Of a DNA stretch of 31,342 nt, positions 9,392 to 31,342 are shown one piece after another (position 1 is the stretch's first letter; the number at the start of each line of letters is the position of its first letter). The DNA lies in sequence record NC_049385.1; one strand, 5' to 3'. Source of the stretch: Peduovirus P22H4. Under the pieces are notes generated by a model that had not been told where the DNA came from, did no database searches, and saw only the letters and a list, made by a program, of their open reading frames with translations. The position numbers and the translations under genes are program-made.

Positions 9392-9457
9392 TTGTGCCAT
9401 TCCCGACACCTCATCGTCACATTGCCGCCGGTATGACCCGGCGGCATCCTTCCCGTT
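9392..9457 (+). promoter_or_regulatory. Putative late promoter upstream of V (P2 PV equivalent)
   Basis: 66-bp intergenic gap before the V-W-J-I-H-G operon; assigned by position from P2 knowledge only. Confidence 0.35.
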
Positions 9458-14661: not shown

Positions 14662-14853
14662 GTTGTATGAGCTCTGGTGTGAGCTTACATATCTATGGCA
14701 CAGAGTAAAGACTAATCTGACAGTCCGCTCTGTGCCAAAAACGGGCAGAGTGAATGGCTAAGTCTAGCTCATTAGAAATGTTCGCTTCATGAAAATGGCT
14801 GCAGCAAGGATCTATCTCACTGCGGCCTCTTTACAATAACGAAATTTTGCGAG

Positions 14854-15609
14854 CTATTCCTTGGCCTCTTTATTTTTCTCGCCATCGCCAATGTAAAGAA
14901 GATAATCGTTTAAGGATATCCTTCCGGAGGGGCCGGTCCATGTTATCCATCCGTTCTCACGAAGATTAAATAATGCTTCCATGAACTCATTATCGTTAAA
15001 AGAATGATCCTCTGAGAACAGAATGTTCATTTTTCTCAATAGTTCTTCCACTTTAATCTTTTCATATCGCCTTATCAGACTTAGTGCTTTACGACGCATT
15101 AAGATTGTAGGTACTGCTTGTGAACGAATGGTTTTTTGTATTCCACTATCAAGAACTTTCTTGATCTTACTCTCTAACTCTTTGATTTTAGTTTCATTAT
15201 CTCCATTGGACTTAAGCTTTTCATCAACGATGCAAATAATTTCCTGACTAATGCTGTTCTTGAGGTTGTTTATTTTTTCTTCATTGTTGAGAATCTCATC
15301 AGAGCTTCCTGCATGGGGTTTTTTCCATATGTGCTGACGCATATCCGTTACCGTATCTCTCATCATAGAGAATGTATCTGAATATAACTTGTCAAATATT
15401 TTTTCCAGTCGTTCGACACTTGCCTGGATGTCTTTTGCTGCTTTAGTTGTCTCTTTAGAAGCCTCATTCGACATTTTATAAAAAACAAAAGAAAGCCAAA
15501 TAGCCCCAATGGCGAGTACTAATGAGGCTATTGTGGCAATAAAACCTATTATTGTTATTGCTGTATCTAATGTACCTGCTGCATCTGTGACTACTGTTTC
15601 TGCTGCCAT
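14854..15609 (-). CDS. Hypothetical membrane-anchored protein; AT-rich cargo gene at the P2 Z/fun hotspot, candidate exclusion or defence function
   Basis: 251-aa ORF on the opposite strand to the flanking late operons; ATG start with an AGGA-type RBS; one predicted N-terminal TM helix (ITIIGFIATIASLVLAIGAIWLSFVFY) then a Lys/Glu-rich helical region; about 33% GC on the line I counted. Confidence 0.7.
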   Translation of the reverse strand: MAAETVVTDAAGTLDTAITIIGFIATIASLVLAIGAIWLSFVFYKMSNEASKETTKAAKDIQASVERLEKIFDKLYSDTFSMMRDTVTDMRQHIWKKPHAGSSDEILNNEEKINNLKNSISQEIICIVDEKLKSNGDNETKIKELESKIKKVLDSGIQKTIRSQAVPTILMRRKALSLIRRYEKIKVEELLRKMNILFSEDHSFNDNEFMEALFNLRENGWITWTGPSGRISLNDYLLYIGDGEKNKEAKE

Positions 15610-16119
15610 ATATCCTCAATATTTAACCATACAGGGTAGCGTGTTTTAACCGCGGGGAAGTCGGGGTGGTGACACCCTAGCCTTACCCCGATTCCAGAGT
15701 ATTTATTTATCATACCATTGAAACTATTTAATTTTATCGAAAATTTTGTCAGAGCGTGACTGAAAAGTCTTCAGCACGTCAAGCATATCGTCGCCGTTCA
15801 ATTAACACTGAGCCTTTTCTTAGAGGGGTGGGCTGCGCAGTTGCGAGGTTATGCCCCAGTTCCTAGTTCCTCACTACATTCTAATTAAGCCGGCCAACTA
15901 AATGTCCGCTTTTCGCTCAAAGCAGACTGTCAGATTTGATAGCGTTTGGGCTATGTAAATTGTCAGTTGGAAAATGAGTGAGTACAAATCAGGATAGGCT
16001 GGCGGATTACCCGCCTTTTCTTTGTCTGTTGTTTCATCCCCTGACCAGCCAGGTCAAATAGCGTCTCATGCTCTGCACAACAGAAAATAGTTGCACCCAT
16101 TAACCACGGAGTTAAACGG
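15610..16119. promoter_or_regulatory. Long intergenic region holding the presumed cargo-gene promoter and the late promoter for FI (P2 PF equivalent)
   Basis: 510 bp with no ORF of 60 aa or more in the track; divergent layout between the minus-strand cargo gene and FI. Confidence 0.4.
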
Positions 16120-21259: not shown

Positions 21260-22422
21260 TGCTGGATGCGCTGACATTTGATGCAGGCAGTACGCTGACG
21301 CCGGATTACATGCTGATGCTCGACAGCAGGGATATTACCGGCAATATCAGCGACCGTCTGATGAGCATGACCCTGACGGATAACCGGGGCTTTGAGGCTG
21401 ACCAGCTTGATATTGAACTGAACGATGCCGACGGGCAGGTCGGGCTGCCGGTTCGTGGCGCTGTCCTGACGGTGTATATCGGCTGGAAAGGTTTTGCCCT
21501 GGTATGCAAGGGGAAATTTACCGTTGATGAGGTTGAACACCGGGGCGCGCCAGATGTGGTCACCATCCGCGCCCGGAGTGCAGATTTTCGCGGGACGCTC
21601 AATTCCCGCCGGGAAGGCTCCTGGCATGACACCACGCTCGGTGCGATTGTTGAGGCGATAGCCTCCCGTAACAGGCTGGAAGCCAGTGTTGCTCCGTCAC
21701 TGGCCGGAATAAAAATTCCACACATCGACCAGTCGCAGGAGTCCGATGCGAAATTTCTGACCCGTCTTGCAGAACGCAACGGCGGTGAGGTGTCGGTAAA
21801 AATGGGAAAACTGCTGTTTCTCAAAGCGGGGCAGGGGGTGACGGCCAGCGGTAAAAAAATCCCGCAGGTCACCATAACCCGCAGCGACGGCGACCGCCAC
21901 CATTTTGCGATTGCTGACCGTGGAGCCTATACCGGCGTAACGGCAAAGTGGCTTCACACCAAAGACCCGAAGCCGCAAAAGCAGAAGGTAAAACTGAAAC
22001 GCAAAAAGAAAGAAAAACACCTGCGCGCACTGGAGCACCCGAAAGCAAAACCGGTCACGCAGAAGAAAGCGCCAAAAGTACCGGAAACGCGCGAAGGTGA
22101 ATACATGGCCGGTGAGGCTGACAACGTTTTTGCCCTGACCACGGTATATGCCACAAAAGCGCAGGCCATGCGCGCCGCTCAGGCGAAGTGGGATAAATTG
22201 CAACGGGGTGTTGCGGAGTTCTCCATCAGCCTGGCTACTGGTCGGGCTGATATTTACACGGAAACACCGGTTAAAGTGTCAGGCTTTAAGCGCGTCATAG
22301 ACGAGCAGGACTGGACAATCACTAAGGTGACACATTTTCTGAATAATAGCGGCTTCACGACGTCCCTGGAGCTTGAGGTCAGGCTTTCTGATGTGGAGTA
22401 CGAAACAGAAGATGATGAGTGA
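21259..22422 (+). CDS. D: Tail protein / late control protein (P2 gpD)
   Basis: 387-aa ORF, P2 gpD length; start overlaps the U stop. Confidence 0.88.
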   Translation: MLDALTFDAGSTLTPDYMLMLDSRDITGNISDRLMSMTLTDNRGFEADQLDIELNDADGQVGLPVRGAVLTVYIGWKGFALVCKGKFTVDEVEHRGAPDVVTIRARSADFRGTLNSRREGSWHDTTLGAIVEAIASRNRLEASVAPSLAGIKIPHIDQSQESDAKFLTRLAERNGGEVSVKMGKLLFLKAGQGVTASGKKIPQVTITRSDGDRHHFAIADRGAYTGVTAKWLHTKDPKPQKQKVKLKRKKKEKHLRALEHPKAKPVTQKKAPKVPETREGEYMAGEADNVFALTTVYATKAQAMRAAQAKWDKLQRGVAEFSISLATGRADIYTETPVKVSGFKRVIDEQDWTITKVTHFLNNSGFTTSLELEVRLSDVEYETEDDE

Positions 22423-22503
22423 TGTTTTTATTTTATCTATTTGTTTTATAAGGATAAATTAACTAAAATGGCACCATCAACAAAACCGGAAGAGGTGCTC
22501 GCG

Positions 22504-22722
22504 ATGTTTCATTGTCCTTTATGCCAGCATGCCGCACATGCGCGTACAAGCCGCTATATCACTGACACGACAAAAGAGCGTTATCACCAGTGTCAGAACG
22601 TGAATTGCAGCGCCACGTTCATCACTTATGAGTCGGTACAGCGATACATCGTAAAGCCGGGAGAAGTCCACGCCGTAAGGCCGCACCCGTTACCGTCAGG
22701 GCAGCAAATTATGTGGATGTAA
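22504..22722 (+). CDS. ogr: Late-gene transcriptional activator Ogr (C4 zinc finger)
   Basis: ATG at 22504 gives 72 aa (MFHCPLCQHAAHARTSRYITDTTKERYHQCQNVNCSATF...) with Cys-X2-Cys-X22-Cys-X4-Cys; the ORF track's 93-aa form uses an upstream TTG. Confidence 0.9.
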   Translation: MFHCPLCQHAAHARTSRYITDTTKERYHQCQNVNCSATFITYESVQRYIVKPGEVHAVRPHPLPSGQQIMWM

Positions 22723-22733
22723 TTACAAACAGA

Positions 22734-22760
22734 AAGCCCCTCAGTCGAGGGGCTTTTTTT
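22734..22760 (+). terminator. Rho-independent terminator after ogr
   Basis: GCCCCTC-AGTC-GAGGGGC hairpin followed by T7 (22754-22760). Confidence 0.8.
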
Positions 22761-22824
22761 GTCGATGTGGTCAATGTGTGGACGTGACCAGAAATAAATC
22801 CTTTTATTTCATTGAATTACGCGT

Positions 22825-22851
22825 AAAAAATAAGCCCGTGTAAGGGAGATT
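22825..22851. other. attP: attP core (P2 27-bp att core AAAAAATAAGCCCGTGTAAGGGAGATT)
   Basis: Exact 27-bp string present between ogr and int; matches the P2 att core as I recall it. Confidence 0.7.
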
Positions 22852-22930
22852 TAGGGTGTCACCAGTAGGGGCTTTCAACGGTACAATGCGGGTTTGAGCG
22901 GCATAAATTACCACTGAAAGCCCTTAAACG

Positions 22931-23944
22931 TTACTCTACTGTGGACACTGTGTGGACACTCTCGGCCTCAGTACCACCTCTTAGCGGATTAAGAGAAATG
23001 GCGTCCTGAAGGTACTCTGGCGCAAAATGAGCGTAAACCATAGTTTGCTCAATCCGCGTGTGACCTAGTATCCGTTGTAGCGTGATAATACTTCCTCCAT
23101 TAATCATGAAATGAGTGGCAAAGCTGTGCCTTAGTGCATGTGTGGCTTGCCCCATTGGCAAATCCGGTTTTATTGCTTTCATTGTTCGTCTGAAGCGAGG
23201 GTAATCAGCATCAGGGAATAAAAAACCTCGTTTGTTATCCGCGATCATTTTGGCAACAGCCTCTGAGATCGGGACGGTGCGTGGTTTGTTTGTTTTCGTT
23301 TTAACAAACGTGACGCGGTTATGGATGATATTTTCTGCTTTCAAACGAGCTGCTTCTCCCCAACGTGCTCCAGTACTCAGGCAAAGAATCGCAATCTTTT
23401 TGTTGTCGCCGTCAAGAGCAGCAAGCAGTAAGGCAATTTCTTCCTGCGTGAGATAGCCTGTGTCTGGTTTTTCCTCCTTAAGCCTTTTTGTCCCTCTGAT
23501 AGGGTGCTCACCAAAGAATAACTCCGCTTCAATCAGGGCTGTAAACATGCCGCTAATACATGTTAAATCACGATTGATACTCGAAGGTTTAATACCCTGA
23601 CTTCTTCGGGTGGCGCAGTACTGGCTGATAAGCGATTTCGTAATTTGAAATGCGCATGGGTCATTCGTTATTTTTGTGAAGATTTCAATTTTTCCAAGAT
23701 TAGATTTCCCATGCTCTTCGTGTTTACCCTTTAAATCCCACCAGATCTGTGTCAGCTCCGACAGACGTCGCTTGTCTGTTGGTTTTGATAGCCATTCTTT
23801 ATTGTGGTGGTTGTACAACGTGTATTTCTCGAAAGCGACAGCTTCGCTTTTCTTATCAAACTTCCTACGGATGCGTTTTCCATTACGTCCAGTAGGGCGG
23901 ATGTCCACTTCATATCGACCATCATCGAGTTTTTTGATTGCCAT
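22931..23944 (-). CDS. int: Tyrosine integrase (P2 Int)
   Basis: 337-aa ORF, P2 Int length; contains tyrosine-recombinase catalytic region (HALRHSFATH... and LGHTRIEQTMVYAH); adjacent to attP. Confidence 0.9.
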   Translation of the reverse strand: MAIKKLDDGRYEVDIRPTGRNGKRIRRKFDKKSEAVAFEKYTLYNHHNKEWLSKPTDKRRLSELTQIWWDLKGKHEEHGKSNLGKIEIFTKITNDPCAFQITKSLISQYCATRRSQGIKPSSINRDLTCISGMFTALIEAELFFGEHPIRGTKRLKEEKPDTGYLTQEEIALLLAALDGDNKKIAILCLSTGARWGEAARLKAENIIHNRVTFVKTKTNKPRTVPISEAVAKMIADNKRGFLFPDADYPRFRRTMKAIKPDLPMGQATHALRHSFATHFMINGGSIITLQRILGHTRIEQTMVYAHFAPEYLQDAISLNPLRGGTEAESVHTVSTVE

Positions 23945-24059
23945 CAGAAAACCCTCCGAGTGGTGTGTTTTTTTGCGACTACTAATCGCTTTTTTCGTGG
24001 TGGCTGAAATTTAGCCACCAATAGTAGGCACTTGTGATGAATATATTCACGATGAATTG

Positions 24060-24359
24060 TTAACCAGTCTTTTGACCGGAGTGGGGCGACGTTGTTTCGT
24101 TTTGCCCAAAGTGTGCGAGAGCGGGCGCAATTTGCCCGGACTCAGGAGCGATCTGATTGGTCATGAACCATAAAGTGTATTTGGTGAATTGTGGGGTCTG
24201 CAGGATGTTCATCATGACATCTGTTGGAGGTGTTGAACGACCACTTTCATAGTAACTCAGCGTGCCATACGGAACCCCTGTTAAATCAGCAAGTTGTTGT
24301 CTGCTCAAATACTCTGATTTTCGCATTAAGACTATCTTCTCGCTTATCGTGTTTGACAT
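24060..24359 (-). CDS. C: Immunity repressor C
   Basis: 99-aa ORF, P2 C length, with a helix-turn-helix-like segment (LSRQQLADLTGVPYGTLSYYESG); divergent from cox. Confidence 0.88.
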   Translation of the reverse strand: MSNTISEKIVLMRKSEYLSRQQLADLTGVPYGTLSYYESGRSTPPTDVMMNILQTPQFTKYTLWFMTNQIAPESGQIAPALAHFGQNETTSPHSGQKTG

Positions 24360-24473
24360 GGTGTTTAGATCTCAATAGTATCTAGTTTAGATGTAGATTG
24401 TTTAGTGCTTGGATGTGGGCACTAAAAGGCATTATAAGACATTAAACGCAATTCATGAGGGCTAGAGGACGAC
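24360..24473. promoter_or_regulatory. C/cox developmental switch region (Pe/Pc face-to-face promoters) with C-repressor operator direct repeats
   Basis: 8-bp direct repeats GTTTAGAT at 24363-24370 and 24385-24392, 22 bp apart, with a partial third copy GTTTAG at 24400-24405; P2 C binds direct repeats of this kind flanking Pe. Confidence 0.7.
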
Positions 24474-24749
24474 ATGAGCAAGCAAGTAACACTCATGACT
24501 GATGCGATTCCTTATCAGGAGTTCGCAAAACTAATAGGAAAATCGACAGGAGCGGTTCGTCGGATGATCGATAAAGGAAAGCTGCCTGTAATTGATATGA
24601 CCGATCCACAATCAGCTTCAGGTCGTGCAGGTGAATATTGGGTATACCTTCCGGCATGGAATAACGGACTAAAACTGGCTTATGAAAGCCGCCCTAAAGA
24701 GATTCGTGACGGCTGGTTGATGTGGTTAGGTCTCGGTGAACCACGTTAA
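24474..24749 (+). CDS. cox: Cox (excisionase / repressor of Pc)
   Basis: 91-aa ORF, P2 Cox length, first gene of the rightward early operon. Confidence 0.88.
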   Translation: MSKQVTLMTDAIPYQEFAKLIGKSTGAVRRMIDKGKLPVIDMTDPQSASGRAGEYWVYLPAWNNGLKLAYESRPKEIRDGWLMWLGLGEPR

Positions 24750-28788: not shown

Positions 28789-29240
28789 TGGCAAAAATTC
28801 ACGAGGTAAAGCTGCACGCAAAATATTTTGACCTTGTGCTGGAAGGAAAGAAACGCGCAGAGTTTCGGAAAAATGACCGTAATTATGAGCGCGGGGACAC
28901 GTTGATTTTGCATGAATGGGGGCAGGGTGTGTTTACGGGGCGAAAGGTTGAAGCCCGGATAACAGATGTTACTGACCTGTCAGACTGGCTGGAAGACTAT
29001 GTCTTGCTAAGTATTGAGCTGCTTAATACAGGCGCATATGAGATTGTGAACTGGAAAGAACTTAGTGAGCGTGGCCTGGTATTCAGAATTAATCATGAAA
29101 TTATGCATCAGCTCGGCCTTGCTGTTATGTATGAACCAGAGACGGGGATGTCTGGCGGGGCAATGGTCGCCACGGATGGAGCATGGAACTATTCAGATGA
29201 ACAGATGGAGCGTGCACAGCAAAACGGGTGGCTTGGATAA
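28785..29240 (+). CDS. Hypothetical protein (P2 orf91-like) with an ASCH/DUF3850-like N-terminal domain
   Basis: ATG at 28785 overlapping the A stop, 151 aa; N-terminus IHEVKLHAKYFDLVLEGKKRAEFRKNDRNYERGDTLILHEW resembles the DUF3850/ASCH pattern as I recall it. Confidence 0.6.
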   Translation: MMAKIHEVKLHAKYFDLVLEGKKRAEFRKNDRNYERGDTLILHEWGQGVFTGRKVEARITDVTDLSDWLEDYVLLSIELLNTGAYEIVNWKELSERGLVFRINHEIMHQLGLAVMYEPETGMSGGAMVATDGAWNYSDEQMERAQQNGWLG

Positions 29241-29446
29241 TGCACAGAATACCAGGCGAGATACCGCACCATAAAACTAAAAATATCAAGCTGATGGCTA
29301 TTGTTCAGCGTTTACAGCGGATTATGGTCAACGAAAATCTGACGCCCGATGAGCTGGTCGGGTGTGCCGAAATAGTACGGGATAATTACGGGCGGCTTAA
29401 CTATATCGGTCAGTCCAGAGTTGCGCCACCACCACGCAGACGATAG
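29240..29446 (+). CDS. Small hypothetical protein
   Basis: ATG at 29240 overlapping the preceding stop; 68 aa, basic C-terminus; backbone-like GC. Confidence 0.45.
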   Translation: MHRIPGEIPHHKTKNIKLMAIVQRLQRIMVNENLTPDELVGCAEIVRDNYGRLNYIGQSRVAPPPRRR

Positions 29447-29669
29447 AGAACACCGCCAGTCGTGAAACTTGTTTTCAGGGCTGGCGGGGTTGAACAACGA
29501 GCGAAGCGAGACGTTAGTTGACAGACATATTTTTACTACGTTGGTGCTGGTTTTTGACGGTTGAAAGGAGTTAGGTTGGAGAGCTAACAACTTACAAATA
29601 TTCAAAAGTAAGCATCCTGTTGCTAACATGAGGTTGATTTTTTATGTGGATGATGCAAAAAGGATAGCT

Positions 29670-30401
29670 ATGGATACTATAATCGCTTTTCTATCACTCG
29701 CTTTTTTCGTTGCTTTCTTCATCGGGTTAATCAAGCCATCACTGGTGCGAATGCCAAACCGCAAACGTGCAAGTGCGGTTTATCTCGGAGGAGGTTTTGT
29801 ATTGAGCATAATTGGTTCAATACTCTATCCAACAGAAAAAAGCCAGCCAGTTGCTAAAACTGAAACATCAACCGTTGCAGAACACAAAGTCCAAAAAACA
29901 TTCGAATATGGTGAAAAAACACTCAAGGAATATCGGAACGAGTCAAAGAAAACACGACACGATATTGTGAATAGTTACATTGATTTTAAGGAAGTTCCAG
30001 CCACCGCGTCAGATGCGTTTTATGCCTGCATGAGTGAGTATACATTTACCAAAGATGATGAGTTGAAACTCGGTGATGTTCTTGGGTGGTGCTTTAATGA
30101 TTATGAAAATGACCCGAGTTCACTAAACAATAAAATCAATCTTGATACATTTCAGAGTAATTTTAGTGGTTGGGATGGTTCTTATCGTCCATTGGAAAAA
30201 CTAATTAAAGATAATATGAACGATGATTCATCTTATAAACATGTGTCAACGGTATATCATCTGGTTTTGAATAAAGACCCGCATGCCATTGTGAAAACCA
30301 CGTTTCGCGGAACTAATGCTTATGGCGGAGTGGTGAAACAGACGATTGCTGCGCGTGTCAATGTAGAAACAGGTGAGGTTGTATCAATTATAAGTGAGTG
30401 A
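29670..30401 (+). CDS. Hypothetical membrane protein (two predicted N-terminal TM helices); cargo gene 1 at the P2 tin/old hotspot
   Basis: ATG at 29670 preceded by AAAAAGGA; 243 aa; TM segments IIAFLSLAFFVAFFIGLI and AVYLGGGFVLSIIGSILY, then a soluble domain; AT-rich; no Walker A motif. Confidence 0.65.
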   Translation: MDTIIAFLSLAFFVAFFIGLIKPSLVRMPNRKRASAVYLGGGFVLSIIGSILYPTEKSQPVAKTETSTVAEHKVQKTFEYGEKTLKEYRNESKKTRHDIVNSYIDFKEVPATASDAFYACMSEYTFTKDDELKLGDVLGWCFNDYENDPSSLNNKINLDTFQSNFSGWDGSYRPLEKLIKDNMNDDSSYKHVSTVYHLVLNKDPHAIVKTTFRGTNAYGGVVKQTIAARVNVETGEVVSIISE

Positions 30402-30499
30402 ACTGTGCCAGAATGATAAAGATGCCAGCATTTATGCTGGCAATCATAAAAATAGTGACTAGCAAAAATTGGTGTCTGGTTTTAATGTGAGATTAGAAA

Positions 30500-31198
30500 A
30501 TGAATAGATGTAAATATATTTTAAGAGGTTTGTTGCTGAAGTTTAAAAGTATAAGTTCTATGCATTTGTTATTTGTTTTAATAACGGCTTGTCTATTCTT
30601 TTTTATAGGGTGTTACGTGGGTTATAGTGGTATTGGTTTGAATGGTGACACTAAATACCAATTAATTACAATACCTTTTTTGACCATGTTGGGTACTTGG
30701 GTTTCTGGGGTGGGAGCATTTTCTGCTGTTGCGACATCATTGTTGTTGGCACACCGTTCGCTAAAGGAAAATTCAGAAGAAATTGCTATTCGATATAGCA
30801 TGGTGTTAATGCCATCAATGTACTTACCTAGCACTACAGATACAGCAATATCAATAACCATAACAAACAAAAGAAAAGTAAGGAGTAATATTCAATCGGT
30901 TGTTTTGCAATTTTCTAATAATAAAGCAATGAATATATTGGTAAACCCCGGGACGCTTATCTCTGGCAAGTTACCGCATGTTTTAGAAGACTATGGTGAT
31001 ATATTGACGCTTATAATTCCAGAGAGCATTATCGCATCAGTAACTGATGAGGGGTTCGTAAAAGAATGTCAGGGGAATACTCTTGGAGAAGGTAGTGTCG
31101 TAGTTCACACAACGACAAAAACATTTGTAAAAAAATTAACATTACCTCAAATTAAGCCATTTAATGATAAATTTAAGTCTGTATTGACGAAACCGTAA
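30500..31198 (+). CDS. Hypothetical membrane protein (two predicted TM helices); cargo gene 2 at the P2 tin/old hotspot
   Basis: 232-aa ORF; TM segments LLFVLITACLFFFIGCYVGY and LITIPFLTMLGTWVSGVGAFSAVATSLLL, then a Ser/Thr/Val-rich domain; about 25% GC on the line counted; start uncertain (ATG 30500 has a weak RBS, alternative ATG at 30560). Confidence 0.6.
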   Translation: MNRCKYILRGLLLKFKSISSMHLLFVLITACLFFFIGCYVGYSGIGLNGDTKYQLITIPFLTMLGTWVSGVGAFSAVATSLLLAHRSLKENSEEIAIRYSMVLMPSMYLPSTTDTAISITITNKRKVRSNIQSVVLQFSNNKAMNILVNPGTLISGKLPHVLEDYGDILTLIIPESIIASVTDEGFVKECQGNTLGEGSVVVHTTTKTFVKKLTLPQIKPFNDKFKSVLTKP

Positions 31199-31323
31199 GA
31201 GGTGCGTTGCGTTGCATTTTTTTGCATCTTCAAGGATTAATTTCTGCATCTTTATTTTGCCAGTACTGATGTGCTTTTAATGGACTCATGCAACTGCATT
31301 AAAACCGCCCCATGAAGCGGGCG

Positions 31324-31332
31324 GGCGAGGCG
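31324..31332. other. cos: cos site, proximal 9 nt (GGCGAGGCG) of the P2 19-nt cohesive end
   Basis: Last phage bases before the terminal adapter; completes the cos 19-mer with bases 31-40. Confidence 0.75.
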
Positions 31333-31342
31333 CTGTCTCTTA
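31333..31342. other. Sequencing adapter remnant (start of CTGTCTCTTATACACATCT, the reverse-complement Tn5 mosaic end)
   Basis: Terminal CTGTCTCTTA matches the first 10 nt of the Nextera read-through adapter. Confidence 0.75.

Follow-up and report, generated by a model that had tools for sequence, protein, structure and literature searches.

The P2-type attachment site between ogr and int of Peduovirus P22H4 and its host target at cyaR

Genes and features between ogr and int

The window analysed here is the whole of sequence record NC_049385.1 (Peduovirus P22H4), a stretch of 31,342 nucleotides. Its attachment region lies in the gene order ogr-attP-int-C-cox, as read from the list of open reading frames and the map of phage P2, with ogr as the last gene before attP and the position-for-position equivalent of P2 ogr. 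The interval from the stop of ogr (22722) to that of int (22931) has no open reading frame of at least 40 amino acids. Coordinates were transferred from the P2 record AF063097 to the window with an offset of 1531 (1532 to the left of one extra T), and this offset is confirmed by the int stop, which lies at 24462 in P2 and maps to 22931. The features of the region are the following.

22504-22722, + strand: ogr, late-gene activator of 72 aa, by homology to P2 ogr (24036-24254); Pfam Ogr_Delta, E = 1e-21
22733-22760, + strand: Rho-independent terminator of ogr and the F operon; hairpin at 22733-22756, then seven T
22733-22757: ogr/F-operon terminator of P2 (24265-24288), transferred with the offset of 1532 that applies left of the extra T
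22762-22789, + strand: P arm, Int-binding region by transfer; P2 protein_bind 'Int, P arm' 24293-24320, 100% identical
22766-22773, + strand: arm-type repeat TGTGGTCA, from a TGTGGWCR motif search
22777-22784, + strand: arm-type repeat TGTGGACG, from the same motif search
22793-22826, + strand: IHF-binding region, by transfer; P2 protein_bind 'IHF' 24324-24357
22825-22851, + strand: attP core, 27 bp identical to attB, crossover region; P2 24356-24382
22825-22852: Int, attP core feature of the P2 record (24356-24383), transferred with offset 1531
22868-22941, + strand: Cox-binding region between the core and the P' arm, by transfer; P2 'Cox' 24399-24472, 100% identical
22931-23944, - strand: int, tyrosine integrase of 337 aa; Pfam Int_N and Phage_integrase
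22939-22965, + strand: P' arm, Int-binding region by transfer; P2 protein_bind 'Int, P' arm' 24470-24496, 100% identical
22940-22947 and 22951-22958, + strand: arm-type repeats TGTGGACA, from the TGTGGWCR motif search
24474-24749, + strand: cox, recombination directionality factor, also Pc repressor; Pfam Phage_Cox, E = 5e-48

The core of the site, the 27-mer AAAAAATAAGCCCGTGTAAGGGAGATT, occurs as a single exact copy on the + strand when the whole window is searched, with no second site at up to three mismatches anywhere in the window and no match in shuffled sequences. The initial annotation had matched this string to the att core of P2, and the identification is correct: the 27-mer is identical to the misc_feature 'attP' (24356-24382) of AF063097, and the core of P2 attP and of attB at locI, printed letter for letter in PMC3931495, is the same. 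Read as its reverse complement, the core forms the final 27 nt of the sRNA gene cyaR, which comprise the terminator's loop, the 3' half of its stem and the U tail.

The four arm-type repeats lie on the same strand, and the spacing within either pair is exactly 11 bp. Both arms also share an 18-nt double-repeat block in the same orientation (22766-22783 and 22940-22957, 89% identical). In 1000 first-order Markov simulations of the window, neither four same-strand copies of TGTGGWC within 200 bp nor two TGTGGWC pairs at 11-bp spacing were produced (0/1000 in each case), and not a single such pair arose. Three of the four repeat positions given earlier stand as they were, and the fourth was displaced by one nucleotide, the motif search placing TGTGGACG at 22777-22784 and not at 22778-22785. 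The accompanying proposal that the repeats are arm-binding sites of the integrase agrees with the P2 record, whose Int P-arm and P'-arm features, once transferred, cover both repeat pairs in sequence that is 100% identical. The int-side pair had also been placed inside the 3' coding end of int, which is where it lies: it falls within the open reading frame at 22931-23944 on the minus strand and encodes the C-terminal ...SVHTVSTVE*. The repeats of the window agree with the arm-site consensus tgTGGaCa published across P2-like phages (PMC3448106), and the N-terminal domain of Int has been reported to read the arm sites and its core-binding domain the core (Nilsson et al.). The P arm is 100% conserved in Peduovirus P24A7b despite the different core and int of that phage.

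The proteins encoded around the site are those of P2 almost to the residue. Int is identical to P2 Int at 336 of its 337 positions, the single change being E161D, and Cox at all 91 of its 91; Pfam also finds the HTH repressor, as expected. Scanning with the Cox-box consensus, which we take to be TTAAASNCA, gave nothing better than matches with two mismatches, and the Cox region was therefore assigned by its identity to the Cox feature of P2. An imperfect 18-nt inverted repeat in this region (22866-22883 / 22909-22926) fits the description of Berntsson et al. 2013 (PMC3936717), in which attP carries six cox boxes in two orientations between the core and the arm Int sites; the same work places the action of Cox during excision at attL.

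The hairpin of the ogr terminator is a perfect 10-bp inverted repeat that was also picked up by a terminator scan, and its T run (22754-22760) has seven T, as in P24A7b and 9W, against six in P2. Scanning 22400-23200 with Rfam at E <= 10 returned only sub-threshold matches and no CyaR; with just the final 27 nt of cyaR present in attP, none was to be expected. The sub-threshold candidates (Phe_leader, Yfr10, isrJ and others) were rejected as chance terminator look-alikes, all of them lying on the ogr terminator hairpin.

The segment from ogr to int is 98.6% identical to P2 and 100% identical to Escherichia phage 9W (OM475431.1), and positions 30-31332 of the window are 100% identical to 9W, the whole attP included. 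Alignment of 22723-22960 to P2 attP, which had been proposed as a check, leaves the two apart by one extra T and six substitutions. The same differences, with the extra T in the terminator T run, are the only ones across 22700-23000. The substitutions are at 22812, 22814, 22815, 22819, 22820 and 22821 (CATTGAATTACGCGT here, CAATTTATTGTACGT in P2), and all six fall inside the annotated IHF site of P2, just left of the core. Around them the position and the A/T-rich context of the IHF region are conserved. The best match to WATCAANNNNTTR has one mismatch in P2 (TTTCAATTTATTG) and two in the window, where a second match with two mismatches lies on the other strand. Binding of IHF at the allele of the window is assumed here.

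Host target and natural junctions

For this core the attB locus is locI of P2, which lies between yegR and yegQ at the 3' end of cyaR; this is the outcome of the search of host genomes that the initial annotation had suggested as a means of predicting the target. E. coli ESY001 has an unoccupied site, in which the 27-mer is intergenic between yegR and yegQ; a full-length CyaR_RyeE match (100.7 bits, Rfam) reaches into the 27-mer with its 3' end. The order in K-12 is D'-ogrK-P arm-core-cyaR, with cyaR intact (the CyaR_RyeE match overlaps the core), and in APEC E19025 it is yegR-B-core-P'-int-C-cox. Since the core supplies the last 27 nt of the gene and cyaR is intact in K-12, integration regenerates cyaR at attR. 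Earlier reports have described locI of K-12 as occupied by a P2 remnant (PMC3931495) and, in the genome paper of E. coli W, have listed cyaR among the insertion sites of P2 prophages (PMC3032704).

With one genome taken per species, the exact core is found in Escherichia, Shigella, Kluyvera and some Enterobacter hormaechei. Among a total of 149 core occurrences, nearly all from genome and IMG/VR contigs, the largest groups are 51 in which the P arm is joined to cyaR (attR) and 55 in which a host arm is joined to P' (attL). Both phage arms are present in only three of the 149, namely the window, 9W and P2. The abundance of natural junctions, both attL and attR, that carry the same arms provides indirect evidence, from sequence comparison, that the site is in use. 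Three E. coli chromosomes matched at least 80% of the attP query and were considered as candidates for a chromosomal attP; the one inspected, that of APEC E19025, has an ordinary attL, and the candidate was rejected. The host arm of this attL is an unusually long relic of the P arm.

Relics of this kind are also seen at "empty" attB sites. When compared with positions 22760-22824 of the window, the yegR side of such sites in Escherichia and Shigella carries a decayed copy of the P arm (ATCGATGTGGTCAATGGAAGACGGTGACC...GGGCTTAYGCRT; loci L003:1440-1535, L016, L027 and L030), in which a single arm-type Int site, TGTGGTCA, has remained intact. Just upstream, AAGGGAGATT repeats the right end of the core over 10 nt. 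The relic is longer in some strains (APEC E19025, Escherichia sp. MOD1), and none was found at the cyaR sites of Kluyvera and Enterobacter. It looks like the scar left by the ancient loss of a P2-like prophage. Several Kluyvera species (loci L013, L017, L022 and L024) carry the exact 27-mer at cyaR with the 3' end of what appears to be a conserved coding sequence to the left of the core; this sequence is unrelated to the P2 arms and may belong to another element integrated at the cyaR site.

The flank immediately left of the core (22812-22824) exists as three alleles among P2, the phage of the window and P24A7b. Throughout the P arm the three phages do not differ, and their sequences part at one and the same base, 13 nt left of the core; the divergence of P24A7b at this very base marks it as a mosaic boundary. 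At the natural attR junctions the allele family of the window, CATTG(A/T)ATTACGCGT, is the commonest, with 28 of the 51 (23 + 5), and the P2-type family accounts for 15 (11 + 4), which argues that the flank found here is an ordinary working allele. Together with the core, the TTACGCGT of this flank makes up 35 bp that recur unbroken at the attB sites of a minority of E. coli, such as ESY001, and the same 35-bp stretch is shared by some attL junctions. Host B arms mostly carry TTATGCAT or TTATGCATA at the position of TTACGCGT, TTATGCAT being the commonest.

Form of the genome and its variable regions

The phage DNA of the window spans 31-31332, starting with GGGAAAGCAC and ending with GGCGAGGCG. 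Parts of cos lie at 31-40 and 31324-31332, and when joined they make up GGCGAGGCGGGGAAAGCAC, which the P2 record annotates at either end as the 19-nt cohesive end and which is sealed and duplicated at both ends of the 9W record. The window thus holds one cos-to-cos genome unit of 31,302 bp, without host DNA. The earlier view that ogr and int flank an intact attP, and that the sequence is the excised or virion form and not an integrated prophage, had named host sequence between the two genes as the finding that would speak against it. None was found there; both arms are phage DNA, cos is present at both ends and the genome is colinear with P2. With cos parts at both ends, phage arms on both sides of the core and no host DNA, the non-integrated reading is supported, and the contig is confirmed as a complete, non-integrated phage genome. 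The first 30 bases (1-30, CGTGGGCTCGGAGATGTGTATAAGAGACAG) and the last 10 (31333-31342, CTGTCTCTTA) are not phage DNA and represent untrimmed adapter remnants, presumably the Nextera transposase adapter and the reverse complement of its mosaic end, respectively; they should be masked.

Colinearity with P2 extends over the whole length of the window, interrupted only by four segments that have been replaced. In place of the Z/fun region of P2 there is another segment of 1.16 kb (14745-15904), at a position that we take to be a variable hot spot for cargo and defence genes in P2-like phages. The tin-old region adjoining cos (29009-31332), which together with Z/fun makes up the two classical variable regions of P2, is replaced by two open reading frames with hydrophobic N-termini. 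The cargo open reading frames in these regions are as follows, and none of the three gave a significant match in Pfam or PADLOC.

14854-15609, - strand: cargo ORF of 251 aa with a hydrophobic N-terminus, in the Z/fun position
29628-30401, + strand: cargo ORF of 257 aa, in the tin-old region
30500-31198, + strand: cargo ORF of 232 aa, in the tin-old region

The orf30 of P2 is absent, about 65 bp standing in its place (9394-9457). Between 12603 and 14085, the C-terminal part of the tail-fibre gene H together with gene G is either unalignable to P2 or only 78% identical to it, and the divergence of these parts suggests a different receptor specificity.

Interpretation and comparison with known systems

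The interval 22762-22965 is almost certainly the attP of a P2-type phage, essentially Escherichia phage 9W, and one that works as the P2 site does, since a site nearly identical to that of P2 should function as P2 attP. None of the observations speaks against this reading. The identity of the site and of its proteins to P2, the host target, the intact cyaR at the attR junction and the non-integrated form of the genome were observed directly. The binding of proteins, the bending of DNA and the exchange of strands would follow the course known from published work on P2 and from the P2 record. Int, as a tyrosine recombinase with two DNA-binding specificities, would bind the paired repeats of the P arm (ogr side) and of the P' arm (int side) through its N-terminal domain and the 27-bp core through its core-binding and catalytic domains. 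Between the P arm and the core, IHF would bend the DNA, allowing Int to bridge arm and core; the phage would then be inserted by strand exchange between the core and its 27-bp counterpart, identical in sequence, at the cyaR 3' end. The products would be attL (B-core-P'-int...) and attR (...ogr-P-core-cyaR), with cyaR rebuilt intact at the latter, as the final 27 nt of the gene come from the core. Cox, bound between the core and the P' arm, in the region that ends up in attL, would block integration and be needed for excision.

The arms and the form of the genome could in principle be read otherwise. The int-side TGTGGACA repeats might be a by-product of the coding of int and the ogr-side pair a coincidence, with the core alone being of importance, and the P' pair does sit in the codons for ...VHTVSTVE*. 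This is very improbable: both pairs lie under Int protein_bind features of the P2 record, the 18-nt block recurs on both arms in one orientation and with the 11-bp spacing that appeared in 0/1000 simulations, the repeats are kept in P24A7b though its integrase C-terminus and core differ, and an arm consensus has been published across P2-like phages (PMC3448106). Another alternative would read the sequence as an attL or attR, either a prophage junction or a hybrid site, or the window as a chromosomal segment with host DNA between ogr and int. In its favour, the 8 nt left of the core (TTACGCGT) recur on the host flank of some attB sites in E. coli. In the host, however, TTACGCGT sits within the decayed copy of the phage P arm, so that the transfer looks to have run from phage to host and not the reverse. 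Moreover, the core has on either side a phage arm with the same sequence as in P2, the window has a cos part at each boundary, is colinear with P2 and is free of host genes, and real attL and attR junctions look different from it, which leaves this alternative with next to no probability.

A further alternative concerns the flank, and holds that the site is a functionally altered variant of attP in which 22812-22821 changes the binding of IHF or lengthens the identity with attB (35 bp as against 27-28 bp), so that, relative to P2, the phage could integrate with another efficiency, prefer other host alleles or cross over at another position. The clustering of the substitutions in the annotated IHF site of P2, with a weaker match to the consensus, points in this direction, as do the 35-bp identity with some empty E. 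coli sites and some attL junctions and the fact that the stretch starts where phages with other cores also diverge. Nevertheless, the allele family of the window is the more frequent one at natural attR junctions (28/51 against 15 of P2 type), and most host B arms carry TTATGCAT, which limits the 35-bp identity to a minority of hosts. In addition, P2 Int has been reported to tolerate core mismatches of up to 37% (PMC3931495), and for this reason some additional matches beside the core would probably have little effect. An altered variant is therefore unlikely, and comparison of the alleles suggests that a functional consequence of the flank is unlikely as well. A related and rather doubtful idea is that 22812-22824 forms a separately exchangeable piece of attP. 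Should this flank alter the binding of IHF or permit exchange beyond the 27-bp core, it could decide in which host alleles a particular P2-like phage integrates with the greatest efficiency, and could explain the creation and renewal of P-arm relics at cyaR.

The preferred reading, that of an attP working as in P2, is the correct recognition of a well-characterised attachment site that was already known. Its value lies in direct transfer from P2, by which attP, the protein-binding sites and the integration target can be annotated for a phage whose closest record, that of 9W, has no att annotation. The allelic 13-nt flank and the P-arm relics at "empty" attB sites are modest leads in the evolution of prophage sites, not discoveries.

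The closest characterised system is P2 itself (AF063097 / NC_001895, 24293-24496), which has the same core, the same P-arm and P'-arm Int sites and the same Cox region in the same order (ogr-terminator-P-IHF-core-Cox-P'-int), and the same host target at the 3' end of cyaR (locI). The window differs from it at the site in the IHF-site substitutions (22812-22821) and the one extra T of the terminator, and elsewhere in the other cargo that replaces orf30, Z/fun and tin-old and in the end of the tail fibre. The 9W record (OM475431.1, Peduovirus) is a redundant, circularly overlapping assembly with cos sealed at both ends, whereas the window is broken inside cos and has adapter remnants attached; no paper citing OM475431 was found in the literature. 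Peduovirus P24A7b has the same ogr terminator and P arm as the window up to 13 nt left of the core, and an arm-type pair (TATGGACG, TATGGACA) at 11-bp spacing in the same position in the 3' end of int. However, its core, its core-to-P' region and its integrase are all different, and its host target therefore differs. More distantly, the attP sites of phages 186 and lambda follow the same logic: a core flanked left and right by arm-type sites, DNA bending by a host protein and, as here, a small directionality factor (Apl or Xis) that binds in the interval from the core to one of the arms. The arm consensus of 186, tgccGCCActt (PMC3448106), differs from the P2-type consensus, and the cores, targets (a tRNA gene for 186) and proteins of 186 and lambda differ from those of the window, so that the likeness is one of arrangement between unrelated sequences.
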